From: a virus
Length of the DNA stretch: 64,000 nt
IMG/VR virus record: IMGVR_UViG_3300031369_000001
Coordinates: 38,615 to 102,614 of that record
Strand: one strand, 5' to 3'
The translations under genes and the position numbers were made by a program. Positions 1 through 58,511 of the stretch are shown piece by piece (positions within the stretch are counted from its first letter, which is position 1; each line of letters starts with the position of its first letter). Below the pieces are notes generated by a model. The model did no database searches. It was not told the origin of the DNA and saw nothing but the letters and a program-made list of their open reading frames with translations.

Positions 1-330
1 GATAGTGTTGCTAAAAGAAATCAACAAAGAGTTCAAACCTATATTACGGTAAATGAATTAAGGGCTGAAGAAGATAGACCTCCATTGCCAGATGAACAAG
101 GGGATATTATACTGAATCAGGTTTACATTCAGAACAAACAGCAAACACAAGCAATGCAGCAACAAGAAGAAGGTGATCAAAACGAAAACGGAATGACACA
201 AGATGAAGAAGGTGATGATGGAAAACAAGATATAAGATCTTTATTATCTAAATATTCTGAGGATGATTTAGTTGATCAAAATGAAGATGATGAAGTAAAG
301 AAAAGTTTAGTATTGGATGTAGTTTTATAA
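1..330 (+). CDS. Portal protein, C-terminal part (5' truncated by window)
   Basis: Frame is open from base 1: DSVAKRNQQRVQTYITVNELRAEEDRPPLPDEQGDIILN matches the typical portal end (TxNExR...PL..GD), followed by an acidic tail; lies upstream of MuF and protease genes. Confidence 0.75.
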   Translation, partial: DSVAKRNQQRVQTYITVNELRAEEDRPPLPDEQGDIILNQVYIQNKQQTQAMQQQEEGDQNENGMTQDEEGDDGKQDIRSLLSKYSEDDLVDQNEDDEVKKSLVLDVVL

Positions 331-1588: not shown

Positions 1589-4500
1589 ATGCACATACAA
1601 ATAGAAGCAAAGAAGGAAGAACTTTTTTCCAAAAGAGTTTCTTTAGTAAAGTCTATCGCTGATTGCATTGGAGAAGTAGATTCTGATTTAAAAAATCGTT
1701 TAATAAAAGCGATAGACAATAAAGACAAATTGTTTACTGATCCAGTTTTACTAGAAGTATTGAAGCAATGGGAAATAGGTTATAAAGACCAAACCAATGC
1801 GATGCTTGTTGATATAAGTAAAGTATTGGATAAGGGAAAATTAAATAAGAGTCTTAGTTCTGATCCTTCTTGGATTGGTGTTGATTTAGATAGGACGTTA
1901 GCTGAATATCATGAATATAAAGGCCCTGCTTCTATCGGTAAGCCAATTCCTAGAATGGTTGATAGGGTTAAGGAATGGATTGCTAATAATAAAAATGTAA
2001 AAATTATGACCGCTAGGGCAAATCCAAATTCTAGCGATTTTAGAGCATCTATTACTGCTATAAAGAAATGGTGCAAAAAATATATTGGAGAAGAATTACC
2101 GGTAGTATACGAAAAAGATCTGCATATGGTTGAACTTTGGGATGACCGAGCTATTCAGATTAAACCTAATACGGGTATTAGGGCAGATGGATTAAATAAA
2201 AGTGAAGATGAAGGTATTTCATATTTTCATTACGATATAGATACAGATTCCTATATTGAAGACTATAATGAATATTTAAATAAAGCACAAAAAGGTCCAT
2301 TCATTGGTCCACGTGGAGGTAAATGGGCTGATCCAGAACACACCATACCTTGGAAAGAAGAAGTACACAGCTACTCAGAAACTAAAGACCGATATAGTGA
2401 TGAAGAAGCTGAACAAATTTTAGATAGAATAGGCGAGGCTTTATATAGTCATCAAGCAATTAATCCTCGTGAAAAAGATGATACTGGATTTAGTTATGTG
2501 GATATGGACAGATGGAGATCTGTAACTGGTGTAAATGCAAAGAGACAATTACTTCAAAAATATAAACGCCAAATAGTCGGTGCTTATAGTATTGAAGAAT
2601 ATCATAAATTAGGATTAGCAGATGTAAGAGAAGGTAAGGGATATAAAGCGAACATTAAACCTTATTATAATAAAACTTGGGGAAGCCTCACCCTTCCGGT
2701 AGATGGAAGGGTTGATAGAGATACCTTTAATAAATTTAGAGAGATTAATAGAAAACATAATGTGTGGTTTAGTAATGGCGATAACTTTATTAAAGAACAA
2801 TATTTAGATGATTTTGATTTTGAATCTTATAAGAAGGATATGGGGGAAATAGGCATAAAAGTTCACCCAATTAAGGGGGAACGAAAACAAAATGTATCTG
2901 AAAAAGACGAAAAGGATCTTACTGTAGATGAAGCTTTGCAAAGCATTAAAAATAGAAGGATTAAGGATGCAATTGTTCTTAAGAAAATAGGTAAAGATAA
3001 ATTTGCTTTTTGGTCTACCTATTCTCCAGAATTTAATGATTTGTTTTCTAATAAAACTGGTGGATTGTCCGGTATTTTTTACGCAAATAAAGATAATAAT
3101 TGGGCTAGAGAAACGCATGAATTGAATCTAGTAGAAGAAGCTTTACAACAGATAAAGAAGCAATTGCCTAATTATAAGTTGTATATAGATGAAGAAGGTT
3201 TGAAAGAAGCACAAAATGAAAAAGCGAGATATCAAGCTGAATTACAAAAGCCAATTCCTGAAGTACAGAAATTATTAGATAGTAAATATTCATTATTTCC
3301 TTATCAAAATGAAGCAGTGCATTTTTTAGATAAAACAAATGGAAATGCCTTAATTGGGGATTCCATGGGACTTGGAAAAACGCTTGAAACTTTGGCTTGG
3401 TTGGCTAAAGGAAATAAGAAAACAATTTTAGTTGTTCCGAAAGTAGTAAGGCGTACTTGGTTACAAGAAGCAGATAAGTTTTTTCCAGGGCAGTTTAAAG
3501 GAACTGAATTAGTGTCTTCTGATATAAGAAATAATAGAGTTCCAAATTTTAAAGATAAGAACCTTGTAACTGTTAATTATGAATCTTTAGATAAGTTTTA
3601 TCCTTATTTAAAGGATGCTGGTTTTGATACAGTAGTAGTTGATGAATCACATAGGATGAAGAATCCTAAAGCTAAACAGACAAAAGCGATTCAAAAGGTA
3701 TCGGCATTAGTAAATCATCATATTTTATTGTCTGGAACAGCGGTTAAAAATAAAAAAGAAGAGTTGTTTACCCAGTTAGAAGTTGTTGCGCCAGGTAAAT
3801 TTACATCTAAAAATCAAATAAAATTTGCTACTATTGGCGGACTTTGGCGCGATATGAAGGATTTCTATATTGCGAGGAGTAAGGAAGAAGTTCTAAAAGA
3901 TTTACCTGAAAAAGTCACTTCTATTATTCAACAAGACATACCTAATTTACCTGATTATGGTGCAAATAAAGATATTGGGGATATTGCTAAAATTAAAGCT
4001 TCTGTAGCAATTGGAAAAGTTCCTGCTACTATTGATTTGGCTAAAGAGATACTAGGTTCTTCTGATTCAAAGATAATTGTGTTTACTGATTCAGTTGAGG
4101 CAGCTAAAAAGATTCATGAAGAATTAGGTGATATTTCTTTATTGCACCATGGGCAAATGAGCGATGATAAAAGGGAAGCGGTAAAGGAAGAATTTCAAAA
4201 AACAGATGGTAATGGTGATTTCATTTCTCCTAAACGGGTATTCGTAACTACTCGTCAGTCAATGGCTGTAGGAGCTACTTTAACCGCTGCTGATAAAGTC
4301 ATTTTTAATGACTTACCTTGGACTGCTGCTGATTTACGACAAGCAGAGGATAGAGCACATAGAATTGGGCAAAAGAACAACGTAAATGTTTATTGGGTCA
4401 CTGCTTCGAATAATTTATTTGATTCTTCAGTTACGGAGATAATTAAAAGGAAATATGAATTATCTAAAAAAGTAAATCAGGGAAAGAAGCTGACGCAAGA

Positions 4501-6397
4501 AGAAATTGCATGGATGAATAAGCCGTTAACGGTTAGTGATATATTGAATAAAATACATGGAGGTAAAACGCCTATAGAAGAAGAAAAACAATTGCTGATT
4601 AAAGAAAATAAACCTGAAGTTCCTGTTATTCCGATAGAAGTACCTAAACAAGAAGAAGAGCAGAAGCCTAAATTTATTATGCAAGAACCTGTAAAAGTTA
4701 AAGAATCTAAAGATATAATAGATATAAAAAAAGATATTAAAGAAACACAAAATAAGATTGATAAATTAAGAGATAGACAATTAAAAGATTGGCAATCTGG
4801 ATCTATAACTCGTAAAAGGACAACTACATATAATGCTGAAATAAGTCGACATAATGATAGGATACAAGAATTAAAAAAGCTTTTAAACAAATATGAAGAA
4901 AATATTAGTGTAATACAAGAAAAAGAACCTGTAAAAGTTGAAACACAAGAACCTGTTAAAAAGAAACGTGGAAGGCCTCTTGGTTCTAAAAACATTAAAA
5001 GAGTTGCTATTCCTCCAATGGTTATCCAAGAACCTGAAAAAAAGAAAAGAGGGAGACCTCCTGGTTCTAAAAACAAAATGACTCGAGTTGCTATTAAAGA
5101 AGTAACACCTCCTACATTTAAACGAGAAGCTATAAAAGAGGAACCTGTTAAACAAGGTAGGGGAAGGCCACCAAAGCCACAAAGTGTAAAAGAAGCGGAA
5201 TCTAGTTTAGCTTACGTTTCTGCTAAGAATATAAAACTTAAAAAAGTTGCTTCTGATGACGTTCACGATGTCTATCAAACTAATTTTTCTATAGACGTAG
5301 ATGACGCCAAAATAGCTATGAATAATTTACGTGAGCAAGGTATCAATGCAACGGTGCTAGAAGGAGATCCAGGAATAGTTAAAATAAGAAAAGGTTTTAT
5401 AATTAGTGAATCTGATTTATATAAAGCCTTATTCATAGGACCTAAAGGTGGTAAATGGGCAAATGCTGAACATACCATACCTTATCAAGAAGATATAGTT
5501 CGAAAACCTGTTAAGCGAGAACCACCTGGTTCACAGTTAGCAATTGACGTACAAAATAAATTAAAAGAATTGAAAGTAGACAAATTACCTCAATCTACTA
5601 TTCCAATTTCAGACATTAGAATTGATTTAACAGGTAATGTTGATACAAAAGCAATCATTACTTGGAAAGATACTAAAGGAAAAGTCCAAAGTGGTTATAC
5701 TCCAAAATTCCATGAAATAAATGCTAAGGAAAAATGGGATAGAATTAATAAATTTAGAAGTAAGAAAAAAGAAATTGTAAATACATTAAATGAAAAATTG
5801 ATTAAGGGGAAACCCGGTAGTATTGACCACCAAGGTTATACTATATTAGCCATTATTGCAGAAACAGGATTACGTCCAGGTAGTACTGAAAGTGTTAGAA
5901 AGCATGGTCATTACGGTATAAGTACTTTAAAAAAGGATCACATTGCTTTAAATAATAAAATGGCTGTTTTAAATTTTATTGGCAAAGAAGGAAAGAAGAA
6001 TGTTACAGTGATTCAAAATCCTGTTACGTTAAAAGCTTTAGAGTATTACGTAAGCAATGCTACCGAAAATGGTAGTATATTTAATTCCAATGCTTTGGAT
6101 ACTGGTAAAACCATACTTCCTAAAGGAATGAAGGTGAAAGACCTTAGAACAATTAAGGCCACCGAATCAGCGGAAAGATTATTAAAAGAAGTTGACACTC
6201 CTCCTCCATTAACCGGAGATAGTAAAAAGGATAAACGATTATTAGCAAAGGCATTGTTGGAAACAAGTAAAAAAGTGGCTACAATATTGAATAATACTCC
6301 TAGTATTGCAAAGGCTAGTTATATCCATCCAATGGTATTTGAACAATGGGCAAAAAGTGTAGGAGCATCTGAAAAACTTTGGAAAGAGGTAGGTTAA
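1589..6397 (+). CDS. Polyvalent protein: HAD phosphatase + SNF2 helicase + AT-hooks + bacterial-type topoisomerase IB
   Basis: HAD: WIGVDLDRTL...MTAR...WDDRA. SNF2: LFPYQ, MGLGKT, VVDESH, LSGT, QAEDRAHRIGQ. AT-hooks: KKRGRP x2, GRGRP. TopIB: GLRPG, FIGK, KDLRT, LNNT, SYIHP. Confidence 0.85.
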   Translation: MHIQIEAKKEELFSKRVSLVKSIADCIGEVDSDLKNRLIKAIDNKDKLFTDPVLLEVLKQWEIGYKDQTNAMLVDISKVLDKGKLNKSLSSDPSWIGVDLDRTLAEYHEYKGPASIGKPIPRMVDRVKEWIANNKNVKIMTARANPNSSDFRASITAIKKWCKKYIGEELPVVYEKDLHMVELWDDRAIQIKPNTGIRADGLNKSEDEGISYFHYDIDTDSYIEDYNEYLNKAQKGPFIGPRGGKWADPEHTIPWKEEVHSYSETKDRYSDEEAEQILDRIGEALYSHQAINPREKDDTGFSYVDMDRWRSVTGVNAKRQLLQKYKRQIVGAYSIEEYHKLGLADVREGKGYKANIKPYYNKTWGSLTLPVDGRVDRDTFNKFREINRKHNVWFSNGDNFIKEQYLDDFDFESYKKDMGEIGIKVHPIKGERKQNVSEKDEKDLTVDEALQSIKNRRIKDAIVLKKIGKDKFAFWSTYSPEFNDLFSNKTGGLSGIFYANKDNNWARETHELNLVEEALQQIKKQLPNYKLYIDEEGLKEAQNEKARYQAELQKPIPEVQKLLDSKYSLFPYQNEAVHFLDKTNGNALIGDSMGLGKTLETLAWLAKGNKKTILVVPKVVRRTWLQEADKFFPGQFKGTELVSSDIRNNRVPNFKDKNLVTVNYESLDKFYPYLKDAGFDTVVVDESHRMKNPKAKQTKAIQKVSALVNHHILLSGTAVKNKKEELFTQLEVVAPGKFTSKNQIKFATIGGLWRDMKDFYIARSKEEVLKDLPEKVTSIIQQDIPNLPDYGANKDIGDIAKIKASVAIGKVPATIDLAKEILGSSDSKIIVFTDSVEAAKKIHEELGDISLLHHGQMSDDKREAVKEEFQKTDGNGDFISPKRVFVTTRQSMAVGATLTAADKVIFNDLPWTAADLRQAEDRAHRIGQKNNVNVYWVTASNNLFDSSVTEIIKRKYELSKKVNQGKKLTQEEIAWMNKPLTVSDILNKIHGGKTPIEEEKQLLIKENKPEVPVIPIEVPKQEEEQKPKFIMQEPVKVKESKDIIDIKKDIKETQNKIDKLRDRQLKDWQSGSITRKRTTTYNAEISRHNDRIQELKKLLNKYEENISVIQEKEPVKVETQEPVKKKRGRPLGSKNIKRVAIPPMVIQEPEKKKRGRPPGSKNKMTRVAIKEVTPPTFKREAIKEEPVKQGRGRPPKPQSVKEAESSLAYVSAKNIKLKKVASDDVHDVYQTNFSIDVDDAKIAMNNLREQGINATVLEGDPGIVKIRKGFIISESDLYKALFIGPKGGKWANAEHTIPYQEDIVRKPVKREPPGSQLAIDVQNKLKELKVDKLPQSTIPISDIRIDLTGNVDTKAIITWKDTKGKVQSGYTPKFHEINAKEKWDRINKFRSKKKEIVNTLNEKLIKGKPGSIDHQGYTILAIIAETGLRPGSTESVRKHGHYGISTLKKDHIALNNKMAVLNFIGKEGKKNVTVIQNPVTLKALEYYVSNATENGSIFNSNALDTGKTILPKGMKVKDLRTIKATESAERLLKEVDTPPPLTGDSKKDKRLLAKALLETSKKVATILNNTPSIAKASYIHPMVFEQWAKSVGASEKLWKEVG
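2300..2365 (+). repeat. Tag repeat A1 (FIGPRGGKWADPEHTIPWKEEV)
   Basis: 66 nt, 3 mismatches to 10915-10980. Confidence 0.95.
5418..5490 (+). repeat. Tag repeat B1 (YKALFIGPKGGKWANAEHTIPYQ)
   Basis: 73 nt identical to 9851-9923. Confidence 0.95.
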
Positions 6398-6615
6398 TGC
6401 AAGAAAGACGAAATGTAAGAGTTATTGGTAGTAAATTACTACGTATACCCGATGGGTTTATTTCTTGGGAAGAACATTTAAAGGTATGGGAAGCATACCA
6501 TAAGAAATGGAATAATATTCAGTCGGCGGAAAGGATTGCGGAAAGAGGGGGATTTTACATGGATGAAGTTATTGAACTACTTGGAGAACAACCTAAGACA
6601 TGGAGAGCACGGTAA
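6397..6615 (+). CDS. Hypothetical protein (start moved to ATG 6397)
   Basis: TAATG coupling to the upstream stop; GAGGT RBS. Confidence 0.6.
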   Translation: MQERRNVRVIGSKLLRIPDGFISWEEHLKVWEAYHKKWNNIQSAERIAERGGFYMDEVIELLGEQPKTWRAR

Positions 6616-6752
6616 TGGAAAAAGAATTTAATAAAGAAATGAATGAAGATATTGATGATGATGGAGAATTAGACGTTGAGTGGTATCCTATACCGGAAGG
6701 ATTAAAAGAAGCTTGGAATGAGATTATTTTAGAGGAAGGTGGGGCGAAATGA
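6615..6752 (+). CDS. Small acidic protein (45 aa, not in ORF track)
   Basis: TAATG/ATGA coupled on both sides; MEKEFNKEMNEDIDDDGELDVEWYPIPEGLKEAWNEIILEEGGAK. Confidence 0.6.
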   Translation: MEKEFNKEMNEDIDDDGELDVEWYPIPEGLKEAWNEIILEEGGAK

Positions 6753-6976
6753 GTATAAGGGTGAGTGGTATTTTAGAGATTAATTGGTCAGTTGAATTGC
6801 CGGAAGGGAAAGAACATAGCGGGGTTATTTCAGATGATCCAGTTATTGAAGCCGTTTTAGATTTTATTCCGCAGACAGGTTCTATTTATTTATGGGGAGA
6901 AGATGAGAAACCAGTTGATGTGTTTTTAGAAGTTCATGAAGAAGACATGGAAATAGAAGAAGATGAAAGAGGTTAG
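6749..6976 (+). CDS. Small acidic protein (75 aa)
   Basis: Coupled ORF, very E/D rich. Confidence 0.6.
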   Translation: MSIRVSGILEINWSVELPEGKEHSGVISDDPVIEAVLDFIPQTGSIYLWGEDEKPVDVFLEVHEEDMEIEEDERG

Positions 6977-6978
6977 TT

Positions 6979-7968
6979 ATGCGTGAAAAAGTATTGTGTA
7001 TTTATCATAATGCGGATTTAGATGGCATTTGTTCAGCAGCTATAGTTTACGATTATTTTAATTGCCAGGGTGATGTTATCGATGGAAATGTTATTCTATA
7101 TGGAATGAATTACGGAGATGATTTTCCTTGGTCATTTATAGACAAAGATGAAATGACTGAAGAAGATAAAGAAGATTGTGTTCCTTATGACAAGGTAGTA
7201 ATGGTTGATTTTTCTTTATCTAAAGAAGATATGAAAAGATTAAATAATTTAGTTGATTTAATTTGGATAGATCATCATGTGAGTGTAATTGCCGACAACA
7301 AAGATATTCAAGGTGTGCGCGATATAAATTACGCTGCATGTGAATTAACCTATATGTATTTTCATACAGGAATTACTTATATTGATGGAGTACTTGCTTT
7401 ACCATTAGATGGGGATATGCCAAAAGCTGTTAGATTATTAGGACGTTATGATGTATGGGATCATAGTGATAAAGAAGTAGTACCTTTTCAATATGGAATG
7501 AAATTATACGATATAGGGCCTTGTAATTCTGAATGGAAGGATTTGTTAGATAATTCAGTGATTTCTGATAGTATAATTAAACAAGTAATTCATAATGGTG
7601 AAATAATTGAAAAATACCAAAGTAATTTGAACTATAAATATGTAAATGCATATGGCTTTGTTGCTGTTTTAGAATTTGAAGATGAATTGTATAATGTACT
7701 GTGTGTAAATAAAGGTTTTAGTAATTCATCTATTGTTAAGGATAGTGCATTATATAACAAATCTATTATTGATTTAATAATGGTTTTTGTAAGGCATGAG
7801 GAGTCTTACAAAGTTTCTTTATATACCGAAAAAGAAATAGATGTATCACAGATAGCAAAAGCTTTTGGGGGTGGAGGACATAAAAAGGCTGCTGGGTTTA
7901 TTTGTAGTGGCTTAGAATTTGAAGATTTTAATGGAAATTTGATTATTGACATAGATCCCAATGAATAG
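6979..7968 (+). CDS. DHH/DHHA1 phosphoesterase (NrnA-like)
   Basis: YHNADLDG, MVDFS, WIDHH, GGGGHKKAAGF motifs. Confidence 0.9.
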   Translation: MREKVLCIYHNADLDGICSAAIVYDYFNCQGDVIDGNVILYGMNYGDDFPWSFIDKDEMTEEDKEDCVPYDKVVMVDFSLSKEDMKRLNNLVDLIWIDHHVSVIADNKDIQGVRDINYAACELTYMYFHTGITYIDGVLALPLDGDMPKAVRLLGRYDVWDHSDKEVVPFQYGMKLYDIGPCNSEWKDLLDNSVISDSIIKQVIHNGEIIEKYQSNLNYKYVNAYGFVAVLEFEDELYNVLCVNKGFSNSSIVKDSALYNKSIIDLIMVFVRHEESYKVSLYTEKEIDVSQIAKAFGGGGHKKAAGFICSGLEFEDFNGNLIIDIDPNE

Positions 7969-8518
7969 AATTCCTATACAGCGATGGACTGAATTACGAA
8001 TGCAATATGCATTAACTAGGAAAAATAATCTTTTTGACTTTGGAAGATATGCAGTTGTTCCGAATATTGGTTGGGGGTTAGGACTTAATCACGAACCTGA
8101 TTTATTGTGTTTATCTAAAACTGGGATATTTCATGAAGTAGAGATTAAAGTAACTATGGCTGATTTGAAAACAGATAAAGATAAGTGGCATAATCATTAT
8201 TCTAGATTTGTTAAACACCTATGGTTTGCTATTCCAGACATTTTATCTATAGATAAGGTTTTAAGCGAAATTCCTGATTATGCTGGATTAGTTCAAGTGA
8301 GTACTTATTACAATGAATATCCATATAATCAAAAATATTCAAGACAAAAGTATTTAACTCATATAATTAGAAAACCTAGACCAAAATTACGAAAAGGGTT
8401 GTTTACCGACCCTAAACAAGACACTATTATAAAATTTTTAAGGATTGGAGTTTTGCGAATGTGGACAGATACCTATAGGTTTAAACATTTTGACCGACAA
8501 GTAATATTAAAGGGGTGA
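7961..8518 (+). CDS. PD-(D/E)XK nuclease-fold protein (MmcB-like)
   Basis: HEPDLL...EVEIKVTMADLKTD, WFAIP, YAGLV. Confidence 0.65.
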   Translation: MNRIPIQRWTELRMQYALTRKNNLFDFGRYAVVPNIGWGLGLNHEPDLLCLSKTGIFHEVEIKVTMADLKTDKDKWHNHYSRFVKHLWFAIPDILSIDKVLSEIPDYAGLVQVSTYYNEYPYNQKYSRQKYLTHIIRKPRPKLRKGLFTDPKQDTIIKFLRIGVLRMWTDTYRFKHFDRQVILKG

Positions 8519-11500
8519 TTATTATGCCGTTAACTCCTGATCAAATATTAGAAATCCAAGATATAATTGAATTACATCATAATGCATTTATAGCTAATAC
8601 AATTGGTCATGATGCGTTACCTGATGAAGTAATTGATGAATTACGAGATAAAGGATTATTGAATAAAGAATCTAAAGACCTTATTAAGAAGATATATGAA
8701 TACGGTCAAGTGCTTGGTAAATTGAATAGTCCCCAAGCTTCACAGATGTCCTATAATAGATTTGAAGATTATATTCAAAAAAATCCACAACCGTTAACGC
8801 AAATGCAACAACGAGCTGTTCGTATGGCCCAAGTGAATGCCGGTCAGTATTGTATGGGATTAGGAAATATAATTGAAAAAGATACGGGAAGAACTTTAAT
8901 AGAAGCAGATCAAAGATTTAGAATTGCATATGAGGATAAAATAAAAAATCTTACTGCTTTAAATGCTGCAAGAAGAGAGAGTATTGAAAAGCTTAGAAGT
9001 GATTTAGGTTGGTCTACAGGGGATTGGGCTAGGGATATGAAACGAATTGCTGTAACTGAAATAATGTATTCAACGCAGCAAGGACAAGCGGATTACCTTA
9101 GAAAGAAATATGGAGAAGATGTTTTTGTTGCACGTATTCCTAATCCAGGGGCGTGTAAGCATTGTATTCGTTTACATATTGGTCCAGATGGGCAGCCTAG
9201 AATATTTAAATTATCTACTTTAGAGGAACATGGTAGTAACGTAGGACGAAAACAAAATGATTGGCAAGCTGTAGTTGGCCCAGTTCATCCTAATTGTGTA
9301 TGCAACATGATTAGTGTTCCAAAGGGATGGGGATTCAATGAAGAAGGAGACTTGCTTCCAGGAGGTAAGTTAGGGGAAATATATTATGAACCAGAAGAAT
9401 TAGAAAGGGCTTTAATTGAAGAAAATCTTTTTTATAAATCTTTAAAGGCTAAGGTTAATATAGTTTTCCAAGGAATTCCTATTGTTATTGAAACTCCAAA
9501 AGGAGATAAGCGAAAATGGATTAATGGAGATGGTTCGATAGGGGAAACCATTATGCAGGAAGCTTCTTATGGATTCGTAAAAAATACTACTTCTATGGAT
9601 GAAGAAGAATTAGATGTATTCGTTGGACCATTTAAAGATTCACCTGTAGTTTATATAATTGATCAAAAGAATCCGGATAATGAACTATATGATGAACAGA
9701 AATGTATGCTTGGTTTTCGAAATGAAGAACATGCATTAAATGTATATAGAATGAATTACGATAATCCAGATAAATTTATTTATGACTGTAGTTCGATGGA
9801 TATAGAAGCCTTTAAGAGATGGTGTGGGATAGGTATTATTCGAGAAGAAATATATAAAGCCTTATTCATAGGACCTAAAGGTGGTAAATGGGCAAATGCT
9901 GAACATACCATACCTTATCAAGATCCTAGTTTAGCAATGAGAAATAAAGCTAGTAATTTTTATGATGGATTGATTAGTTGGGTAAAGGATAATAAAGATA
10001 ATTTACAATTTGATTCAAATGGAAATGTTTATATACAGGCAAATCAATTTACAAATGATAAAAATTTATCGCATTTACATATACTGATTACTCCTAAAGG
10101 AGTTTTTAGAGGCAATGGTATTGGTAAAACTAGTGATGGGAAAGATGTATTAGTGTTAACTAATTTAAGAAATCCATATGATACTACTTATTTAGACACT
10201 AGAATAACTAGTAGAGTTATTATACACGAAATATCTCATTATCTTAATGCTGGATACGATAAAGTTCATAATATAGTAACTGAGCATGGTAAAGAATATT
10301 ATAATCAATCTGTCGAATTTGATGCATTTTGGAATGAAGGTGCTGGGGAATTGGAAAGATTTATTCGTAATTTTAAAGACACAAATCAACATCATATATT
10401 TGAAAGGATAGTAGGAAATTCTCCTGATTTTAAGTACTTTAATAGTAAAGTAAAATCTTTTTGGGATAAAACCTTTTTGAATAGTTTAACAGAAGCTAAT
10501 AAGAAAAAATTTGATAAAAGATTATATAGATTATGGGATGATTTAAAAAGCAATATCTATAAATCTAATTACGATTTATCCCCTGGTCCAGGTTCTGGAT
10601 TGAATTTCTTTTTAGGTACTAATGTAAATAAACCGAATAGTGGAGGAACTATTCGATATAAAGAAGTATTGGAATTAGGTAAAGAGGAATTAGAAAAACG
10701 TAAAAAGCAAAAAGGTAATAAAGGTATTTACGGGGATATAGAGGATTATCAATTTGGCGAAAACATTATACCGGTTAAAGAATTGATAATTCCTGAGACC
10801 GTAAAAGAGTCTAAGAAAGAAGCACGGAAGAAAAATAAGGATGTGAATAAATTTGTACTTACTAGAAGATTAAAATGGAAAAAAGGAAATGTAAATAATT
10901 TAAATAAATCATTGTTCATTGGTCCACGTGGAGGTAAATGGGCTGATTCAGAACATACTATACCTTGGAAAGAAGAAGTATCAACAAATGGTAAATTTGT
11001 TGATACTAACGATAGTGCTTTAAGTAACGTATTGGCGGAATTGTTGGGAAAAAATATTCATTTAGAAAAAGTTAGGGAAACAGATAAAGAGTTGTTTTAT
11101 AGAGGGGGTAAGGAGTTACTTATTGGTGCTAAGAAGCTAATTAATGCTTTAAAAAATAAAGGATTTAAGGTAGAAATAATTCCGCAAGGAAAGAACCTTC
11201 CTATAGTTGTTTTGAATAAGCCAATAAAAAAAGAACCAATAAAGAAAGAACCAATAAAGAAAGAACCAATAAAGAAAGAACCAATAAAGAAAGAACCAAT
11301 AAAGCTATCCAGTGATGAAGTTATAAAACAAGATAAAGTTTTAAAGGATAAAAAGATTTTTAACAAATTAAGTAGTGATTATGTTAATAGGATTAATAAT
11401 ATTTACAAAGTATTAAAAGACGATAAAGATTTTAAATACTTTGTAAAATCTATTGGTCATACTAATGTAAAAGATACTATTGAATACTTAATTAATAAAT

Positions 11501-12069
11501 GGAATGAGACAGGAAGTGACCATGATATACATTTAATTATTTTACAAAAAGCTGCGATGGATGAGTTTGGATTGGATAGTGGGACGATTAAACATTTTGA
11601 TAAGAAGTTATTAAATAAGGTACATAAAATACCTAAAACTGTTATGGGGGCAAGAAAATTTATAAGAGCGCAGTATAGTCTTACACAAGAATATCTAAAA
11701 AAACAGGGGATATCGGAAATTATTCTGTTTAGAGGAATGCAACTTAAAAAGATTAAAAGTGATGGTAGGTCTAAAGAGATTGAAGTTACTTCCCAACCTC
11801 TATCTTCTTGGTCTACTTCTTTTTCAGAGGCTAAAGATTTTTCTGTAAGGGGGGCAGTTGGTAGTTCTTCTTTTTCTAGTGTTTTATTGTCTAAAAAAGT
11901 TCCTATAGAACAAATATTTTCTATACCAAAGGTTGGTATAGGTGAAAGTGATGAACAAGAATGCGTTTTACTTGGAAATAAGAAAGATCCTGAAAAAGTG
12001 ATTTCTTTAGCTGCTGATTATCATTATATGTATAATATTAATGTAAAACAATTATATGGAGAAAAGTAA
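8515..12069 (+). CDS. MuF/gp7 head morphogenesis polyvalent protein: MuF + pyrophosphatase-like + zincin + R-S-E ADP-ribosyltransferase
   Basis: MuF: RIAVTE, ACKHC, PVHPNCVC. PPase-like: IETPKG..R, YGFV..T.SMDEEELDVFVGP, DEQKCMLGF. Zincin: HEISH...EFDA. ART: LFRG, SSWSTS, ESDEQE. Confidence 0.82.
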   Translation: MIIMPLTPDQILEIQDIIELHHNAFIANTIGHDALPDEVIDELRDKGLLNKESKDLIKKIYEYGQVLGKLNSPQASQMSYNRFEDYIQKNPQPLTQMQQRAVRMAQVNAGQYCMGLGNIIEKDTGRTLIEADQRFRIAYEDKIKNLTALNAARRESIEKLRSDLGWSTGDWARDMKRIAVTEIMYSTQQGQADYLRKKYGEDVFVARIPNPGACKHCIRLHIGPDGQPRIFKLSTLEEHGSNVGRKQNDWQAVVGPVHPNCVCNMISVPKGWGFNEEGDLLPGGKLGEIYYEPEELERALIEENLFYKSLKAKVNIVFQGIPIVIETPKGDKRKWINGDGSIGETIMQEASYGFVKNTTSMDEEELDVFVGPFKDSPVVYIIDQKNPDNELYDEQKCMLGFRNEEHALNVYRMNYDNPDKFIYDCSSMDIEAFKRWCGIGIIREEIYKALFIGPKGGKWANAEHTIPYQDPSLAMRNKASNFYDGLISWVKDNKDNLQFDSNGNVYIQANQFTNDKNLSHLHILITPKGVFRGNGIGKTSDGKDVLVLTNLRNPYDTTYLDTRITSRVIIHEISHYLNAGYDKVHNIVTEHGKEYYNQSVEFDAFWNEGAGELERFIRNFKDTNQHHIFERIVGNSPDFKYFNSKVKSFWDKTFLNSLTEANKKKFDKRLYRLWDDLKSNIYKSNYDLSPGPGSGLNFFLGTNVNKPNSGGTIRYKEVLELGKEELEKRKKQKGNKGIYGDIEDYQFGENIIPVKELIIPETVKESKKEARKKNKDVNKFVLTRRLKWKKGNVNNLNKSLFIGPRGGKWADSEHTIPWKEEVSTNGKFVDTNDSALSNVLAELLGKNIHLEKVRETDKELFYRGGKELLIGAKKLINALKNKGFKVEIIPQGKNLPIVVLNKPIKKEPIKKEPIKKEPIKKEPIKKEPIKLSSDEVIKQDKVLKDKKIFNKLSSDYVNRINNIYKVLKDDKDFKYFVKSIGHTNVKDTIEYLINKWNETGSDHDIHLIILQKAAMDEFGLDSGTIKHFDKKLLNKVHKIPKTVMGARKFIRAQYSLTQEYLKKQGISEIILFRGMQLKKIKSDGRSKEIEVTSQPLSSWSTSFSEAKDFSVRGAVGSSSFSSVLLSKKVPIEQIFSIPKVGIGESDEQECVLLGNKKDPEKVISLAADYHYMYNINVKQLYGEK
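9851..9923 (+). repeat. Tag repeat B2
   Basis: Identical to 5418-5490. Confidence 0.95.
10915..10980 (+). repeat. Tag repeat A2
   Basis: 3 mismatches to 2300-2365. Confidence 0.95.
11221..11303 (+). repeat. 15-nt tandem repeat encoding a (PIKKE)x5 linker
   Basis: ccaataaaRaaagaa repeated. Confidence 0.95.
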
Positions 12070-12284
12070 TGGTAATTAATATTGATGAAGATTTAATAAA
12101 TTCTGATTGGTTAAAAAGTAAATGGAATTTACCTCCATATAAAAGCTTTAAATTTATGGAGATATTGCATAGAGATAAAAAATCTTTAGATCAGTTTAAG
12201 CAATTACCTGTATATAAATGGGCAGTTAAAAATGGATTAATTAAAGATGATGAATGGACAGGTAGTGTAAATGAAGTGCCCTAA
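12069..12284 (+). CDS. Small protein, candidate immunity partner of the ART domain
   Basis: TAATG-coupled directly after the MuF-ART gene; function inferred from position only. Confidence 0.5.
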   Translation: MVINIDEDLINSDWLKSKWNLPPYKSFKFMEILHRDKKSLDQFKQLPVYKWAVKNGLIKDDEWTGSVNEVP

Positions 12285-12471
12285 TTGTCGTAATCAAATA
12301 ATCCAAAGAACTGATGATGGATTTAAATTACACGTAAAGGGGAGGATTATTTGGAAAGGAGATATATGTGAATCTAAATGTTATTGGTGTGGCGAACCCA
12401 TTAAAGTGGCGTTGCCAGTTGATTTATCCAAAGCTATTAGGGGGAAAGAGCGTTATGTCATTAAGCGCTAA
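12271..12471 (+). CDS. Zinc-ribbon protein (Mu Com-like)
   Basis: MKCPNC...KCYWC. Confidence 0.55.
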   Translation: MKCPNCRNQIIQRTDDGFKLHVKGRIIWKGDICESKCYWCGEPIKVALPVDLSKAIRGKERYVIKR

Positions 12472-16816: not shown

Positions 16817-17197
16817 ATGGAGAAGAAAAGAATTTTGGTAGTAGATGACGATCCATTAATTTGTAAAATGATTAAACGTTGCATAAGAATTTTTATTAAA
16901 TATCCTATATTAAAAGTGAAATGGGCATTTAGTGTTAGGCAAGCTATAAAGACTATAGATAACAGTCATAAAAAATATAGTCTAGTGATTACTGATTGGG
17001 ATTGTTCCCAAGAGAATGATGGATTTAAAGTTGTTTCTTGTGCATTGGGGAATGGTATCCATTGTATTGTGTACACAGGTGATTCTTTATCTGCAAAATG
17101 TTTTTTAAAGAATTATGGAATAGAAATACCCATTATTGACAAAGTAGCTGATATTACGAAATTAATGGAGGTTATAAATGGAATTATCATTAGATGA
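16817..17197 (+). CDS. Stand-alone response regulator receiver (CheY-like) domain
   Basis: RILVVDDD, phospho-Asp in VITDWD, VYTG, IDK; AGGAGG RBS before ATG 16817. Confidence 0.85.
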   Translation: MEKKRILVVDDDPLICKMIKRCIRIFIKYPILKVKWAFSVRQAIKTIDNSHKKYSLVITDWDCSQENDGFKVVSCALGNGIHCIVYTGDSLSAKCFLKNYGIEIPIIDKVADITKLMEVINGIIIR

Positions 17198-17963
17198 TAA
17201 ACATTTAAACACTTCATATCAAGAATTATTTGATGCAAATATAAAATTAGTATACCATTATGTTAAAAAACATTCTTATTTTTCCGATGAGTTGGAAAAG
17301 GAAGATGTTTTACAAGACGGTAAACTAGGACTATTCTTAGCAGCTAAAACTTTTGATCCTAATAAAAATGTAGCTTTTTCTACTTGGGCATATTATTGGA
17401 TAAAAGCCATTATTACTCGTTCTCAGGCCAAGTTTACATTTTTAAAATGGCCAAATAAAAAATATATTATCCGGACTAAAATTATTCAATTTTGGGGGAA
17501 GTACTACAATTCACATGGAGAAAATCCAGAATTAGACGACATTATTAATGCTTTAGAAGATTTGGACGCATATATGCCTATAACTTCTAAAGATATTACC
17601 ATTGTTTATAATAATATAACAATGTTCAAAAAATCATTAACTAATAAAACAGGGGAAGCTAATCAAGACTTTTCAGATTATGGTAATGAAATTCTATTAG
17701 AGAGTATAATGGTTCCGCAGGAATCAGCTGAAGATAGACTAGTAAAAAAAAGGTCGGTTGAGTTAAATAAATGTTTGTACAAATTGCCATATTTTGAACG
17801 TTTTATAATTGAAAAAAGATATTTGGAAGAATATACTTTAGAGGATATCAGAAATTTATGGAGTGAAATTACTGGAAAGACGTATACACGAGAATGGATA
17901 CGCCAAAAAGAAAAAACAGCATTAAAGAAAATGAAACGATTTATGGAGGAATTTGATGTCTAA
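17178..17963 (+). CDS. RNA polymerase sigma-70 family factor
   Basis: NIKLV, DVLQDGKLGL..A.KTFDP...AFSTWAYYWIK (region 2); TLEDI...TREWIRQKEKTALKKM (region 4). Confidence 0.92.
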   Translation: MELSLDDKHLNTSYQELFDANIKLVYHYVKKHSYFSDELEKEDVLQDGKLGLFLAAKTFDPNKNVAFSTWAYYWIKAIITRSQAKFTFLKWPNKKYIIRTKIIQFWGKYYNSHGENPELDDIINALEDLDAYMPITSKDITIVYNNITMFKKSLTNKTGEANQDFSDYGNEILLESIMVPQESAEDRLVKKRSVELNKCLYKLPYFERFIIEKRYLEEYTLEDIRNLWSEITGKTYTREWIRQKEKTALKKMKRFMEEFDV

Positions 17964-18916: not shown

Positions 18917-19708
18917 ATGCCTCAAGAAATTCCTACAAATGATTTTAGACTTTCTGTAGGAGAAGCTTCTTTTTTTACAAAAGCTTCAGCTCCCGAAGGA
19001 CAACAACGTCGAATAGGTGGTGTTGTTTCTACAGAAACTCCGGATAGACAAGAAGAAACTCTTATTCAAAATGGTTTAGATTTTTCTGAATTTGTAAAAT
19101 ATGGTTGGTTTAATGACAACCATTCTAATCCTAAAGTGAGTCATACCTGTAATTTAGTAGGGTATCCTGAGTTAACTGAACGTTTTCAAAAAGGTGATAG
19201 GTTGCCTGATGGAAAAATTGCAAAAGCAGATTGTCATTGGGCAGAGGGGTATTTGTTAGAAGGTTATTCACCTGCTGATGAATTGTGGAATCTTGCCTGT
19301 GCCTTAAATAAGACCCCCCGTAGATTGGGTTTTTCAGTTGAAGGTAAAATTCAACGAAGAGATCCATTAAATAAGTCTACTGTTACAAAGGCAATTGTTA
19401 GAGAAGTAGCAATTACAAAAGCCCCTGTTAATACAGATACACAATTAAATATATTAGCAAAGGCTCTTTCTATGGGTACTTCTATTCCAGGCAATTCTGT
19501 CGATGGAGATAAAACCGGGGAAAATGCTGGGCAAGTTCTTGCTCAGGAATCCTTAGAGAAGAAAAAGAAAAAGAATTTAAAAAAAGGTTTAACGGATAGT
19601 CAAGCGTTTGCTTGGTTATCTAATCATTTACCCAATATATCCCCTGAATTAAAAGGGAGAATAATCTCGTTGACTCGGGATTTAAAATTGCAAAATAAAT
19701 TGCATTAA
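18917..19708 (+). CDS. Prohead (capsid maturation) protease
   Basis: GVVSTETPDRQEE, FNDNH, LGFSVEG, VAIT..PVN: HK97/SPO1-type protease motifs; position before scaffold and MCP. Confidence 0.9.
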   Translation: MPQEIPTNDFRLSVGEASFFTKASAPEGQQRRIGGVVSTETPDRQEETLIQNGLDFSEFVKYGWFNDNHSNPKVSHTCNLVGYPELTERFQKGDRLPDGKIAKADCHWAEGYLLEGYSPADELWNLACALNKTPRRLGFSVEGKIQRRDPLNKSTVTKAIVREVAITKAPVNTDTQLNILAKALSMGTSIPGNSVDGDKTGENAGQVLAQESLEKKKKKNLKKGLTDSQAFAWLSNHLPNISPELKGRIISLTRDLKLQNKLH

Positions 19709-19724
19709 TTAAAAGGAGTTAGTT

Positions 19725-20543
19725 ATGAAAAGACAGCCAATGCAAAATGATGATGAGATGAAGAACAAGAAAGATCAGATGGATGAGGATAACGAAGATT
19801 CTCAAATGGAAGAAGAAGAAAAGTCTTGCGGTACTAAGAAATCACAAGACCTAACCGAAGATGACCTCAGTAAAGCTGTTGAGGTATTAAATGATTATGT
19901 CAATACGACTGATCCAAATTCTCGAAAAGAGACTTTATTGAAAAAAGCAATGACTGATGATCTTTCTTCTGAAGAGATGAATGAACTATTTAAATCTTTA
20001 AGTGGTTCTGAAAATTCAAATACGGAAGAAGTTAATGATTTTTCTGATTCTGTTCTTAATTCATTAGAATCTGATACTATTCAGAAATCATTAGATGTTT
20101 CTGATTATTTAACAGAATTGCATAGTGGATTAGTTAAATCGCTTAGTACGTTAGAAGGAGAATTAAATAGTAATGCTATGCGTCAGCATACATTTAATAT
20201 TACTCTTGCTAAGAGCATGGTTTCTGTTGTTACTGGGTTACAGCGTACAATGAATGTTATTTCTGAATTAAAAAAATCTATGGACAATTATAGTGAAGCC
20301 CCTATTAGAAAGCCAACATCTGTTCAACCTTTAAACAAAGCTTTTGTTGGACACAATGGGCAAGAAGGGCAGTCTTTAAAGAAATCTGAAATGATGGGAC
20401 AATTACTCTATCTTGCAGAGCAAGGAGTTGATAACATTGGGGGAGTTAGTGTAAATCATGCGGTTGCTTTACTGGAAAGTAGCAATCAATTACCTAATCA
20501 AGTTGTTAGTGCTTTAAAAGCTAGACAAGGAGCTACTGCTTAA
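19725..20543 (+). CDS. Scaffolding protein
   Basis: Acidic/helical protein between protease and MCP with many xxK[SA] sites. Confidence 0.75.
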   Translation: MKRQPMQNDDEMKNKKDQMDEDNEDSQMEEEEKSCGTKKSQDLTEDDLSKAVEVLNDYVNTTDPNSRKETLLKKAMTDDLSSEEMNELFKSLSGSENSNTEEVNDFSDSVLNSLESDTIQKSLDVSDYLTELHSGLVKSLSTLEGELNSNAMRQHTFNITLAKSMVSVVTGLQRTMNVISELKKSMDNYSEAPIRKPTSVQPLNKAFVGHNGQEGQSLKKSEMMGQLLYLAEQGVDNIGGVSVNHAVALLESSNQLPNQVVSALKARQGATA

Positions 20544-20544
20544 T

Positions 20545-20581
20545 AATGAGGGCAGAGCTTATATATAATTGTGCCCTCATT
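20545..20581 (+). promoter_or_regulatory. Hairpin before MCP RBS
   Basis: aatgagggca/tgccctcatt 10-bp stem. Confidence 0.5.
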
Positions 20582-20601
20582 GGGCTTAAAAGGAGTTAAA
20601 A

Positions 20602-22032
20602 ATGTTAGAGAACATGGTTAGTTTTTCAGATTATGATGGCATCGAGGGATATGGAAGTGTTCAGCAGCAAGAAGTAGTTGACTTGAATAAAGCTTTAACT
20701 GCTGGACAAGATATAGCGGCGCCTACTGTTGCTGCTGGAGAAGGCTTTCCTTTACGGGTTGAGTCTTTAGAGAATACCTTAAAAACGGTTACCTTTACGG
20801 CAAAAGAAATTGTTTTTTGGAAAGCTATTCCCAAAATCCCTGCATACAATACGGTGGAAGAGCATAATCAGATTTCGAATTATGGATCTAATGAGGATTC
20901 TGGATTCATTCCGGAAGGTGCGCTTCCTGAAAGTGATGATTCTACTTATGCGCGAAAGTACGCGGTGGTAAAGTTTTTAGGTACTACTCGATCTGTAACT
21001 CATGTAATGAGTCTCGTTCGGCCAGCGCATGGTAACGTTATCGCCAATGAAACCGTTAATGGAACATTGCATTTACTTCGTATTTTGGAAAAAGCTCTTT
21101 ATTACGCGGATTCTTCTTTATCTGCTGTTCAATTTGATGGCTTTAATAAGCTAATTACGGATAATGCAGATTCTGATCATGTATTAGATTTAAGAGGAGC
21201 GCCTCTTACCGAGGATATTTTATCGGACGCAGTAGCTACTGTTAGAACTTCTTATGGATTTCCTACTCATCTTCATTTAAACCATAAGACTAAGTCGGAA
21301 TTAACTAAGACATTTTTCCCCAAAGAGCGACATAATACTTTTACTGATAATAGTGGTATTATTGGTAATAACATTACTGGGTTTACTTCTGAATCAGGTA
21401 TCGTTCAATTTGTAAGTAATACTTTTCTTACTGGTAACACTGCTTCTTATAATTCCGCAGCAATTGGGGACGCAACTAAAATCCCTGGAACACCTACTAT
21501 CAGTACTTCATTAGCTGCTTCTGGTACGGCAGCTCCGTTATGGACTGCGGATGATGCTGGGAGCTATTATTGGACTGTCGTTGCGTGCAATCGTTATGGG
21601 AGGTCAGCTCCAGTGGACGCAAATGAGGCCGGAGGTGCTTTTGCCGTTGCCACTACGCAAACAGTTACTTTTGGTGTAACACCGTCAACTACTGGAGGTG
21701 CCGGGGCTACTGAATGGTACGAAATTTATCGTACTAAAAAGGGTGGGGCGGATGGTACGGAGAAATTAATTCAACGTATCGTGAACTCTAATACTACAAG
21801 TGAACAAACAATTACGGATTTGAATGCAAGTCTCCCGGACACTACCAATGCCTTTTTACTTCAGCAGAATATTGATAGTCTTTCATTTAAACAATTAGCT
21901 CCGATGGTTAAAATCCCATTAGCGACTATTGCGACAGCCGTTCGTTGGTGTCAGGTTCTTTATGGGGTTCCTGTGCTTTATGCCCCGAATAAGAATTTCT
22001 TATTTAAGAATGTGGGAAAGAATAACTACTAA
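20602..22032 (+). CDS. Major capsid protein (SPO1/K/A511-like)
   Basis: LNKALTAG propeptide site, LRVESLE.TLK..TF, FDG..KLI, DLRG..L; size and position. Confidence 0.92.
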   Translation: MLENMVSFSDYDGIEGYGSVQQQEVVDLNKALTAGQDIAAPTVAAGEGFPLRVESLENTLKTVTFTAKEIVFWKAIPKIPAYNTVEEHNQISNYGSNEDSGFIPEGALPESDDSTYARKYAVVKFLGTTRSVTHVMSLVRPAHGNVIANETVNGTLHLLRILEKALYYADSSLSAVQFDGFNKLITDNADSDHVLDLRGAPLTEDILSDAVATVRTSYGFPTHLHLNHKTKSELTKTFFPKERHNTFTDNSGIIGNNITGFTSESGIVQFVSNTFLTGNTASYNSAAIGDATKIPGTPTISTSLAASGTAAPLWTADDAGSYYWTVVACNRYGRSAPVDANEAGGAFAVATTQTVTFGVTPSTTGGAGATEWYEIYRTKKGGADGTEKLIQRIVNSNTTSEQTITDLNASLPDTTNAFLLQQNIDSLSFKQLAPMVKIPLATIATAVRWCQVLYGVPVLYAPNKNFLFKNVGKNNY

Positions 22033-37584: not shown

Positions 37585-38606
37585 GTATTATGATGCTAGG
37601 TAAAGGTGTTCGTACACAAAATGGAATTCCGGTTAGATTTAGAAGAGAAAATAGTAATCCGAATGGGCTATTATTAAAAGCAGTGGTAATTGCCACCTAT
37701 GTAACTGATTCAGAGGAACACCCTAAAATTAATGACACAATAAATACTCCTAGTGTTGTATATTGCGATGTAGTTGTTTATTCCAATATGCCTTATTGCA
37801 GATGGTTTCCTTTATCTAAAGTATTAGTTTCTCAAAAAAGAGGTGGAATACATAATGACAATATTTGGAAACCTAAAGCAGTTAGTAAAAATATATCAGG
37901 AGATTTTAATTCTACTATAGGAGCTAATCCGGGTTCCTTGGATGGAGATCATGTATTAATAGGTTTTATTAATAATTCTTTTAATGAACCAATTATTATA
38001 CGAGGGATACCTCATCCTTCACGTGATATTTATAATGAAGAAAATGAATTAGGAAAGCGTATTAAACTTAAGCTAGTGGATGGAGATCCAGATTTAGTTA
38101 AACATCATGGGGTTTTTCATGGAGTAACAGATTCTGGTGATTATGTAGTAAATACGGTTTACGCTAATGATGGCATTACGGATGATTTAGGAAAAGAGCC
38201 TTTACCATCGATTACAGGTGAAACAGGTAATCAAATACATAGTTTACCTGAGAATAGCAAGTATTCTATAGAATTTAAAAATGTGTCTGATCCTATAAAC
38301 CCAGTAAACGTAGTTACCTTAGTTATTAAAGCTGTTGACAATAATATAGAAGTATTTAAAGATGGGGAAAATGTTATAACGATAAATGATTCCGGTTTAT
38401 CTTCTATATTGCAATTAGGAAATGGTGCTGTATCTGTAGCTATTGCTACACATTTAAAAACTTTGTATAACAATTTATATAATGCAATTTTTTCACATGT
38501 TCACCCTGTAGGAAGCCCAAATACTGGGTCACCTATTTTTTCTTCTCCTTTACCTATTTGGGATATATCTATTGAAAGTGATAGGTTGACAATTCCTGAT
38601 AATTGA
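37581..38606 (+). CDS. Baseplate central spike (gpV/gp5-like)
   Basis: GDHVLIGF OB-fold signature; C-terminal HVH metal-binding tip. Confidence 0.75.
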   Translation: MSIMMLGKGVRTQNGIPVRFRRENSNPNGLLLKAVVIATYVTDSEEHPKINDTINTPSVVYCDVVVYSNMPYCRWFPLSKVLVSQKRGGIHNDNIWKPKAVSKNISGDFNSTIGANPGSLDGDHVLIGFINNSFNEPIIIRGIPHPSRDIYNEENELGKRIKLKLVDGDPDLVKHHGVFHGVTDSGDYVVNTVYANDGITDDLGKEPLPSITGETGNQIHSLPENSKYSIEFKNVSDPINPVNVVTLVIKAVDNNIEVFKDGENVITINDSGLSSILQLGNGAVSVAIATHLKTLYNNLYNAIFSHVHPVGSPNTGSPIFSSPLPIWDISIESDRLTIPDN

Positions 38607-38620
38607 GGATTATTATAATC

Positions 38621-55749: not shown

Positions 55750-55764
55750 ATAAAGGAGTATTGT

Positions 55765-56088: not shown

Positions 56089-56102
56089 CTTAAGGAGTTA
56101 AA

Positions 56103-56465: not shown

Positions 56466-56499
56466 CTGGTAATGCTAGATATTTAAGGAAGGATTCATA

Positions 56500-58474: not shown

Positions 58475-58511
58475 TTAGTATTCCCATTTATGAGATGACT
58501 AGGAAAGATAT

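Follow-up and report, generated by a model that had tools for sequence, protein, structure and literature searches.

The window analysed here comprises the right-hand 64 kb (64,000 nucleotides, positions 38,615–102,614) of the 102.6-kb IMG/VR virus record IMGVR_UViG_3300031369_000001, which has a completeness of about 95%, and our subject is a pair of giant genes at 1589..6397 and 8515..12069 whose products, of 1602 and 1184 residues, may be polyproteins that enter the phage head and are diced there by the prohead protease. The source phage is an uncultured myovirus of about 103 kb with head genes of the SPO1 type; the two giant genes and their modules, as well as the portal, protease, scaffold and capsid genes, lie on the + strand. 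The portal gene (record 37346–38944), which matches PHROG portal families (E 2e-50), begins 1268 nt before the window and its 3′ end occupies 1..330, so that the giant genes stand directly behind the portal. Since the genes for the prohead protease, the scaffolding protein and the major capsid protein (MCP) follow at 18917–22032, with a tail sheath gene 3′ of this block, both giant genes lie inside a myovirus head module. The motif [LIF]xK[SA] occurs at nucleotides 1841 (LNKS), 2192 (LNKS), 2276 (LNKA) and 5417 (LYKA) of the first gene and at 9430 (FYKS), 9850 (IYKA), 10555 (IYKS) and 10900 (LNKS) of the second, and it precedes all four copies of an element, hereafter the tag, of the form FIGP[RK]GGKWAxxEHTIP[WY], which start at 2300, 5432, 9865 and 10915. 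A preliminary description of this DNA had claimed both open reading frames (ORFs), these eight sites and four tags, and an LNKA at residues 28–31 of the MCP; the frames are open as described and every site and tag was found at the position claimed.

The first protein, candidate polyprotein 1, is built as an N-terminal domain, a HAD-like module, a 28-residue peptide, a tag followed by SNF2 and three AT-hooks, and a tag followed by topoisomerase IB (Topo IB), and it contains no peptidase. Its N-terminal helical domain of 84 residues (1589..1852) ends in LNK↓S (1841), has internal sites LVKS-19 and LIKA-38, and also stands at the very start (residue 1) of 22 further tag-bearing proteins; an internal LEK↓A[LI]P is present in 14 of 14 homologues, and the end site is kept in 13 of 14 to 21 of 22 despite diverging flanks. 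The domain thus looks like a scaffold-like targeting propeptide, a candidate that would itself be shredded. The HAD-like phosphatase module (1853..2203; DxDxT motif; PHROG 1238, E 1e-6) is closed by LNK↓S at 2192, and the site LNK↓A (2276), kept in six of seven homologues of the SNF2 module, leads into tag copy 1 (2300–2365; site and tag together 2276..2365). The SNF2 helicase module (2366..5416) matches PF00176 (E 3e-24) and PF00271 (E 7e-14), the Pfam domain covering residues 572–927. Three AT-hook repeats of the KKKRGRP..GSKN type lie between SNF2 and tag copy 2, at 4967–5170 (RGRP cores at 4967, 5048 and 5159), which suggests that the helicase, once freed, would bind AT-rich DNA. The site LYK↓A (5417) and tag copy 2 span 5417..5497 and precede the catalytic core of a type IB topoisomerase (5708..6373, residues 1374–1595; PF01028, E 8e-17). 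Relatives carry homologues of these modules in shuffled order.

The second protein, candidate polyprotein 2, has a GTG start and is built as a MuF-like domain, InPase, a tag with a HExxH module, a Lys-rich linker, and a tag with (PIKKE)n and an ART-like module. The MuF-like head-anchor domain (8515..9441; CxxC...HPNCxC) ends in FYK↓S (9430), and this N-terminus is similar to genes called 'minor capsid protein' in SPO1-like Bacillus phages (tblastn, E 4e-33). The MuF/SPP1 gp7 profile (PF04233) was silent in Pfam at E ≤ 0.01 and, with residues 1–308, also at E ≤ 10; the domain may work like MuF, with family membership resting on no profile match. The InPase domain of polyvalent proteins follows (9451..9825, residues 313–437; PF18823, E 4e-30), then the site IYK↓A (9850) and tag copy 3 (9850..9930), and then the zincin-like module (9931..10566), with HEISH at 10225 and a closing IYK↓S at 10555. 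An AlphaFold2 model of this tag and module, built on a four-sequence alignment, is of moderate quality: the core reaches a predicted local distance difference test score (pLDDT) of 70–87, confidence collapses right after the IYKS site, and the model does not dock the tag onto this core. The module did not match PF18818, the MPTase-type zincin, even at E ≤ 10, and its modelled core had no Foldseek match at E ≤ 0.001 and no family match, so that 'zincin' is a candidate label given by the HEISH motif and a core modelled with moderate confidence. A fold match to the cyanophage A4 pre-ejectosome was rejected, the best VIA Z of 6.6 falling on a helical stretch and below the tool's stated noise level.

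The site LNK↓S (10900) and tag copy 4 (10915–10980; together 10900..10980) introduce the last part of the chain. A 15-nt tandem repeat on the + strand (11221..11304; 5.6 copies, 98% match) encodes the PIKKE units of this last module and is likely a linker of variable length. The C-terminal module (11302..12066) has R, STS and ExE-like motifs at residues 1071, 1098 and 1147 and matches Bacillus phage SP-15 (tblastn, E 1e-17); it had no Pfam match, an empty PDB sequence search and no relatives in IMG/VR, and its single-sequence AlphaFold2 model (pLDDT 36) is unusable, so that ART is a putative, motif-based label. Word-based homologue searches gave 12 matches for the tag, one for the HExxH module and none for the ART-like module. 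Each chain therefore holds at least two unrelated effector or enzyme domains, SNF2 and Topo IB in the first and InPase, HExxH and ART-like in the second. Among the module names of the preliminary description, SNF2 and Topo IB are borne out by Pfam, zincin and ART remain motif-based, and MuF received no Pfam call.

The motif found in the giant proteins is also that of the head proteins. The prohead serine protease (18917..19708; PHROG 1028, E 6e-30) has an invariant His69 and Ser140 (GFSVEG) in a 17-sequence alignment, and its own conserved sites, FTK↓A at residues 20–23 (FxK↓A in general) and LAK↓AL at residues 180–184 (LAK↓[SA]L), flank the catalytic core, which fits self-trimming; it carries five to eight motifs against 0.6–1.2 expected in a shuffling test. 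No match was obtained for the protease against Pfam and PDB sequences, and its subfamily is therefore unplaced. Residues 180–263 (19454–19708) hold a poly-Lys stretch and then a conserved helical C-terminal domain (LT..EA...P), which may be the protease's own capsid-targeting tail, removed on activation. The scaffolding protein (272 residues; 19725..20543; PHROG 15087, E 6e-6), said in the preliminary description to be peppered with sites, indeed holds nine [LIF]xK[SA] against 0.5–1.3 in shuffled sequences (z = 7), and the predicted cut products are 15–52 residues long. In shuffling tests over all ORFs, scaffold and protease were the most enriched for the motif (z 5–8), followed by a 424-residue protein encoded upstream of the portal, with ten motifs against 2.7 expected. 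The scaffold enrichment recurs in four of five fully fetched relatives, and in 19 of 20 further tag-bearing phages the gene before the MCP has 7–17 motifs against 0.5–2.4, which makes 23 of 25 relatives. About 24 of the 26 tag-bearing phages show a 6- to 10-fold enrichment in scaffold and protease.

The SPO1-type MCP (20602..22032; phrog_752, E 2e-90) is homologous to SPO1 Gp6.1 (PDB 9vel, E 6e-80) and to PDB 5lii (E 8e-28). Its predicted maturation site, LNK↓AL at 20683–20694, aligns with the LNKAL of Gp6.1, and the phi812 MCP has VVKS there. At the aligned position the MCP of phage A511 is reportedly cut between Lys and Ser, as Loessner and Scherer are said to have found in 1995. The N-terminal L[NR]K↓AL is kept in 24 of 25 tag-bearing phages. 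A complex prediction with protease residues 24–182, MCP residues 31–476 and a 45-residue site-plus-tag segment scored 0.01 against a mark of 0.32, a score that speaks neither for nor against binding between protease, MCP and tag.

In order to follow the tag beyond the window, a profile beginning at FIGP, and hence carrying no information on upstream residues, was searched against a database of 1.84 billion cluster representatives; it found 604 proteins at E ≤ 1e-3, of which 150 reached E ≤ 1e-10; they are 260–3135 residues long and hold up to five copies each. In the best 150 proteins 349 copies were located, of which 319 are good copies. K[ASG] lies within ten residues upstream of 93% of these 319, with a hydrophobic residue at K−2 in 94% of those cases, and the full [LIFMV]xK[SAG] lies within the same distance of 290 (91%), compared with 4.1% of background windows from the same proteins. 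The claim that a hydrophobic-x-K-[SA] site precedes the tag thus holds nearly always, with Gly admitted beside Ser and Ala, and with the correction that the site, real as it is, belongs to an extended conserved motif running into the tag, L-x-K-[AGS]-(G)-G-P-[FY]IGPRGGKWADxxHTIPWxE. The spacing from Lys to tag varies from three to six residues, so that site and tag look like two elements on a flexible spacer. Behind the tags stand InPase, GNAT, Topo IB, DSP phosphatases, SAM lyase, GGDEF, HNH and SNF2, the varied enzymes that had been expected, as judged by a Pfam scan of 45 tag proteins shorter than the 32 longest matches; no Pfam peptidase domain was found in these 45. The tag is flanked by flexible linkers, and the 25 residues after it are rich in Lys, His and Pro and mildly basic (+1.55 versus +0.38). 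The tag opens the protein, after a leader of 5–20 residues, in 52 of the 150 proteins; 49 of these 52 start with Met, and all 52 lack both a MuF and the 84-residue N-terminal domain. At the other end, only three of 326 tag copies lie within 60 residues of the C-terminus.

The tag had no match in Pfam at E ≤ 10, no model in NCBIfam and no usable match in an ESM Atlas search, in line with the assumption that it is not part of a known domain; its motif strings were absent from papers in a literature search. A tblastn search of a 32-residue tag segment and of a three-tag protein against about 50,700 GenBank phage records gave no match, the tag profile found nothing in the related Chryseobacterium phage MA9V-3, and a pattern scan of genome contigs found only six contigs of metagenome-assembled genomes and gave no host information. 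Three other readings of the tag were rejected: an RNA-level signal, since the protein is conserved across AT-rich and GC-rich codon usage; a part of one enzyme fold, since the enzymes behind it are unrelated; and an appendage at the C-terminus of the module before it, since it often opens ORFs and almost never ends them. As far as sequence comparison goes, the tag is a previously undescribed conserved peptide of about 20 residues that marks predicted cargo modules. In NCBIfam, the tag region of polyprotein 2 (residues 453–488, window 9871–9978) scored 17 bits (E 0.003), below the cut-off of 250, with the C-terminal part of NF053852, a Bdellovibrio 'CpoB-like predatory vesicle lipoprotein' family; this match is probably due to chance.

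Within the window, 14 of 22 residues are invariant among the four tags. The DNA of copies 2 and 3, in two genes 4.4 kb apart, is 100% identical over 73 nt (5418–5490 and 9851–9923), and that of copies 1 and 4 (2300–2365 and 10915–10980) differs at three of 66 nt, which suggests that the copies recently recombined or underwent gene conversion. Recombination across the 73-nt direct repeat would join SNF2 to the HExxH module and would delete Topo IB, the DHH gene, the MmcB-like gene, MuF and InPase. In relatives, module losses and fusions always fall at tags. One relative protein (P0021) is polyprotein 1 minus SNF2, and another (P0053) reads tag-HExxH-tag-TopoIB; in the closest relative (G001; MCP 88% identical), the end of the MuF gene coincides exactly with the equivalent of LNKS-796, the site that precedes tag copy 4, and another gene starts MNKAQKGP-FIGP.

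Boundaries that lack the tag carry the site as well, and they do so in distant homologues too: the N-terminal domain, HAD, MuF and InPase modules have bare sites. The site at the end of the MuF-like domain is kept in 15 of 18 homologues, and most of the 45 InPase homologues examined have hxK[SAG] on both sides of the domain at constant offsets, also where InPase opens the ORF. The cores of three modules avoid the motif, with none in 42 InPase cores (12.3 expected), six in MuF cores (16.9 expected) and 14 in the SNF2 cores of eight sequences (30.5 expected). All 26 tag-bearing viral contigs tested (34–113 kb) encode a phrog_752 SPO1-type MCP, with 26–88% identity to the MCP of the window in the relatives measured, in agreement with the earlier expectation that the tag would be confined to phages with this type of protease. 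The sites, their conservation and their lineage restriction are established by computation. The interpretation in the preliminary description is partly supported overall: its three sequence-based expectations for the tag (a site before it, varied enzymes behind it, one phage type) were all borne out, and tag-less boundaries that keep the site, cores that avoid it and gene ends of relatives that fall at tags are support which it did not contain.

Taken together, these results are best accommodated if the two giant proteins, and head-packaged polyvalent proteins like them, are true polyproteins diced by the prohead protease, a reading that we consider fairly probable on the strength of the sequence comparisons. 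An N-terminal anchor, either the 84-residue scaffold-like helical domain or the MuF-like domain, would carry the chain into the procapsid, where the prohead serine protease would cut after Lys in [LIFMV]-x-K↓[SAG]. Under this one rule the MCP would be trimmed at LNK↓AL, the scaffold shredded to peptides of 15–50 residues and the protease trimmed by itself; as the cutting rule is common to head proteins and cargo, we propose that the protease cuts every module boundary. A HAD phosphatase, an SNF2 helicase with AT-hooks and Topo IB, together with a pyrophosphatase-like InPase, a HExxH protein and an ART-like protein, would thereby be freed in the head, would leave with the DNA on ejection and would act early in infection; packaging, cleavage and ejection of the polyproteins are what we infer from the sites. 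After the cut, many modules would start with (A/S/G)(G)GP-[FY]IGPRGGKWADxxHTIPWxE. Our best guess is that this header is a short docking motif with a single conserved binding partner in this lineage of phages, and a capsid-targeting or retention signal is its most likely role, because a third of the tag proteins have no other N-terminal anchor. The tag DNA may double as a recombination joint for module swapping. A more specific form of this proposal, which we hold only tentatively, is that a large uncultured SPO1-like clade has a modular cargo system in which a procapsid anchor, a universal cut site and a universal header of about 20 residues would address the freed enzymes to a conserved partner for retention or ejection, with the header DNA serving as the swap joint.

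Several points weigh against dicing by the prohead protease. The total number of [LIF]xK[SA] motifs is eight in the 1602-residue protein against 4.4 in shuffled sequences (p about 0.09) and six in the 1184-residue protein against 2.65 (p about 0.03), both only weakly above chance. Because these raw counts are weak, the site claim is judged by position and conservation instead; the earlier claim that sites exceed chance accordingly stands for the positions before tags, the scaffold and the protease, and is weak for the totals of the giant ORFs. In the Topo IB core the motif is not rare (31 against 19.6 expected, one internal site being conserved), and the homologues in all such counts are not independent, which makes the P values rough. 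One tag-bearing phage (G022, region 55200–59550) has LNNAL in its MCP rather than LNKAL; its scaffold still has seven Lys motifs against 0.5 expected. The near-constant K[SAG] before the tag could be part of one longer structural motif, AlphaFold2 leaves the tag unstructured on the four-sequence alignment, and the function of the tag is without direct support. The lineage restriction fits dependence on the head and protease type and equally fits plain common descent. Finally, no cultured carrier of the tag was found, and so no virion proteome exists.

The alternative that survives best keeps the same dicing and gives the tag another role, either (a) that of an exosite recruiting low-copy cargo to the protease or (b) that of an ejection or DNA-association signal. 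Either role is possible and the pair deserves to be kept in view, even if we would not expect it to prevail. The tag follows the sites directly, on their P′ side, a basic stretch of 25 residues rich in Lys, His and Pro comes next, and the tagged modules of the window act on DNA or proteins, while HAD and InPase are untagged. Scaffold, MCP and the untagged boundaries, however, have the site alone, so that the tag is needless for recognition, and the tag itself is not strongly basic; the present results do not separate (a), (b) and packaging.

It is also conceivable, if unlikely, that nothing is cut at all and that L-x-K-[AGS]-GP-[FY]IGPRGGKW...HTIPW is one inter-domain linker or mini-domain, perhaps a recombination joint, in proteins that work at full length, the likeness to a protease site being a by-product of a Lys-rich lineage. 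The nearly invariant K[SAG] before the tag, which could belong to the motif, the tag DNA shared over 73 nt between genes, the shuffling of modules at tags and the weakly significant totals in the giant ORFs would all suit an uncut linker. Such a linker would not explain why conserved boundaries carry the site without a tag, why the spacing between site and tag varies, why cores avoid the site, or why the site is the very motif that is enriched in scaffold, protease and MCP; moreover, the site is kept before tags at the very N-terminus of ORFs, where a linker would be needless.

We regard it as very unlikely that cutting is done by another protease, whether a host enzyme or the HExxH module acting in cis. 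The latter has in its favour the HEISH module of polyprotein 2 and the proposal of metallopeptidase autoprocessing for polyvalent proteins made by Iyer and co-workers (Iyer et al., 2017; PMC5512222). Since most tag proteins have no peptidase, none being found by Pfam in the 45 scanned, an embedded metallopeptidase is unlikely as a general route here; polyprotein 1 likewise has none, the HExxH module does not match PF18818, and the site equals the motif of MCP, scaffold and protease. Least probable of all, by a little, are cytoplasmic multi-enzymes, late or early, that are never packaged and stand among head genes incidentally: the missing Pfam call for MuF and the intervening DHH and MmcB-like genes, ordinary nucleic-acid enzymes, would agree with this, but the N-terminus resembling SPO1-like minor capsid proteins, an InPase that is a phage-type polyvalent-protein domain (PMC5512222), the position between portal and protease and the site logic common to head proteins all speak against it.

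The proposed dicing by the prohead protease has its nearest counterparts in phages that package internal proteins. In T4 and in SPN3US/phiKZ, the prohead protease strips ejection proteins of N-terminal propeptides, which it cuts several times (PMC10052503). As with the T4 internal proteins and Alt and the ejection proteins of phiKZ, 201phi2-1 and SPN3US (PMC10052503, PMC9026906), cargo would here enter the procapsid. In the T4/phiKZ-type systems the maturation protease removes cargo propeptides at its own consensus site, long ones being cut repeatedly, and there as here one motif is found in the MCP, the scaffold, the protease itself and the cargo. The T4/phiKZ-type enzymes, however, cut after Glu (LxE or [ASG]xE), whereas cutting here is predicted from the motif to be after Lys; their precursors yield one mature protein each, whereas one chain here would give four to five enzymes; and their targeting peptide precedes the cut and is discarded, whereas the conserved element here follows the cut and would stay on the product. 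The homologous MCPs of the Herelleviridae phages SPO1, A511 and phi812 carry a Lys↓Ala/Ser site that aligns with the N-terminal one here. To our knowledge, diced polyprotein cargo has not been described in these phages.

Polyvalent proteins, including toxins fused to MuF, likewise place many effector domains on one polypeptide, according to Iyer, Burroughs, Anand, de Souza and Aravind (2017; PMC5512222). The paper describes, as found here, MuF-type anchors, InPase, SNF2, ART and phosphatase modules, domain shuffling and predicted delivery with the DNA; it puts forward an embedded zincin (MPTase) as the processor, whereas the boundary motif here is that of the prohead protease, and neither the boundary consensus nor the tag turned up in a term search of the paper. 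DarA, DarB and DdrB of phage P1 are large multi-enzyme antirestriction proteins that are proteolytically processed and packaged in the head, as cited in PMC5512222. They belong to another head lineage and are without a shared tag. We know of no repeated boundary motif in them. The polyproteins of eukaryotic RNA viruses are similar in that a viral protease separates the functional modules of a single translation product by cutting at a short consensus; unlike these, cutting here would take place in the assembled procapsid of a DNA phage, on accessory cargo and not on replication machinery.

How phage polyvalent proteins come apart after delivery is an open question for which an embedded metallopeptidase is the sole published proposal, and a capsid-maturation protease that recognises the same short motif in cargo, MCP, scaffold and its own chain is a concrete alternative. 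The tag lets virion-delivered effectors be predicted in metagenomic phages from their sequence, and avoidance of the motif in domains together with its retention at boundaries provides a general computational test for substrates of prohead proteases. Should the tag prove to be a targeting signal, chosen proteins could be packaged into phage heads with its help; if the modular cargo system outlined above is true, the header would be a portable signal that takes foreign proteins into heads and on into bacteria.

With respect to the neighbouring genes, a DHH/DHHA1 phosphoesterase gene and a MmcB-like nuclease gene lie between the two giant genes at 6979–8518, and the latter overlaps the GTG start of polyprotein 2. 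An ORF of 71 residues on the + strand (12069–12284) begins with an ATG that overlaps the polyprotein 2 stop codon, and its product may be a partner of the ART-like C-terminal module or confer immunity to it; a 66-residue zinc-ribbon ORF follows at 12271–12471. A gene resembling RNA-polymerase sigma factors (17178–17963; phrog_351, E 7e-27) is located in the head module just 5′ of the protease. The 424-residue protein mentioned above is encoded just 5′ of the portal gene (record 36060–37334, corresponding to window −2554..−1280, outside the window) and holds a fifth, degenerate tag copy after LQKA; its N-terminus is of the DLPDSAF type, a zinc ribbon (CxxC...CxxC) lies at its C-terminus, and its orthologue in the closest relative has an additional N-terminal tag module.

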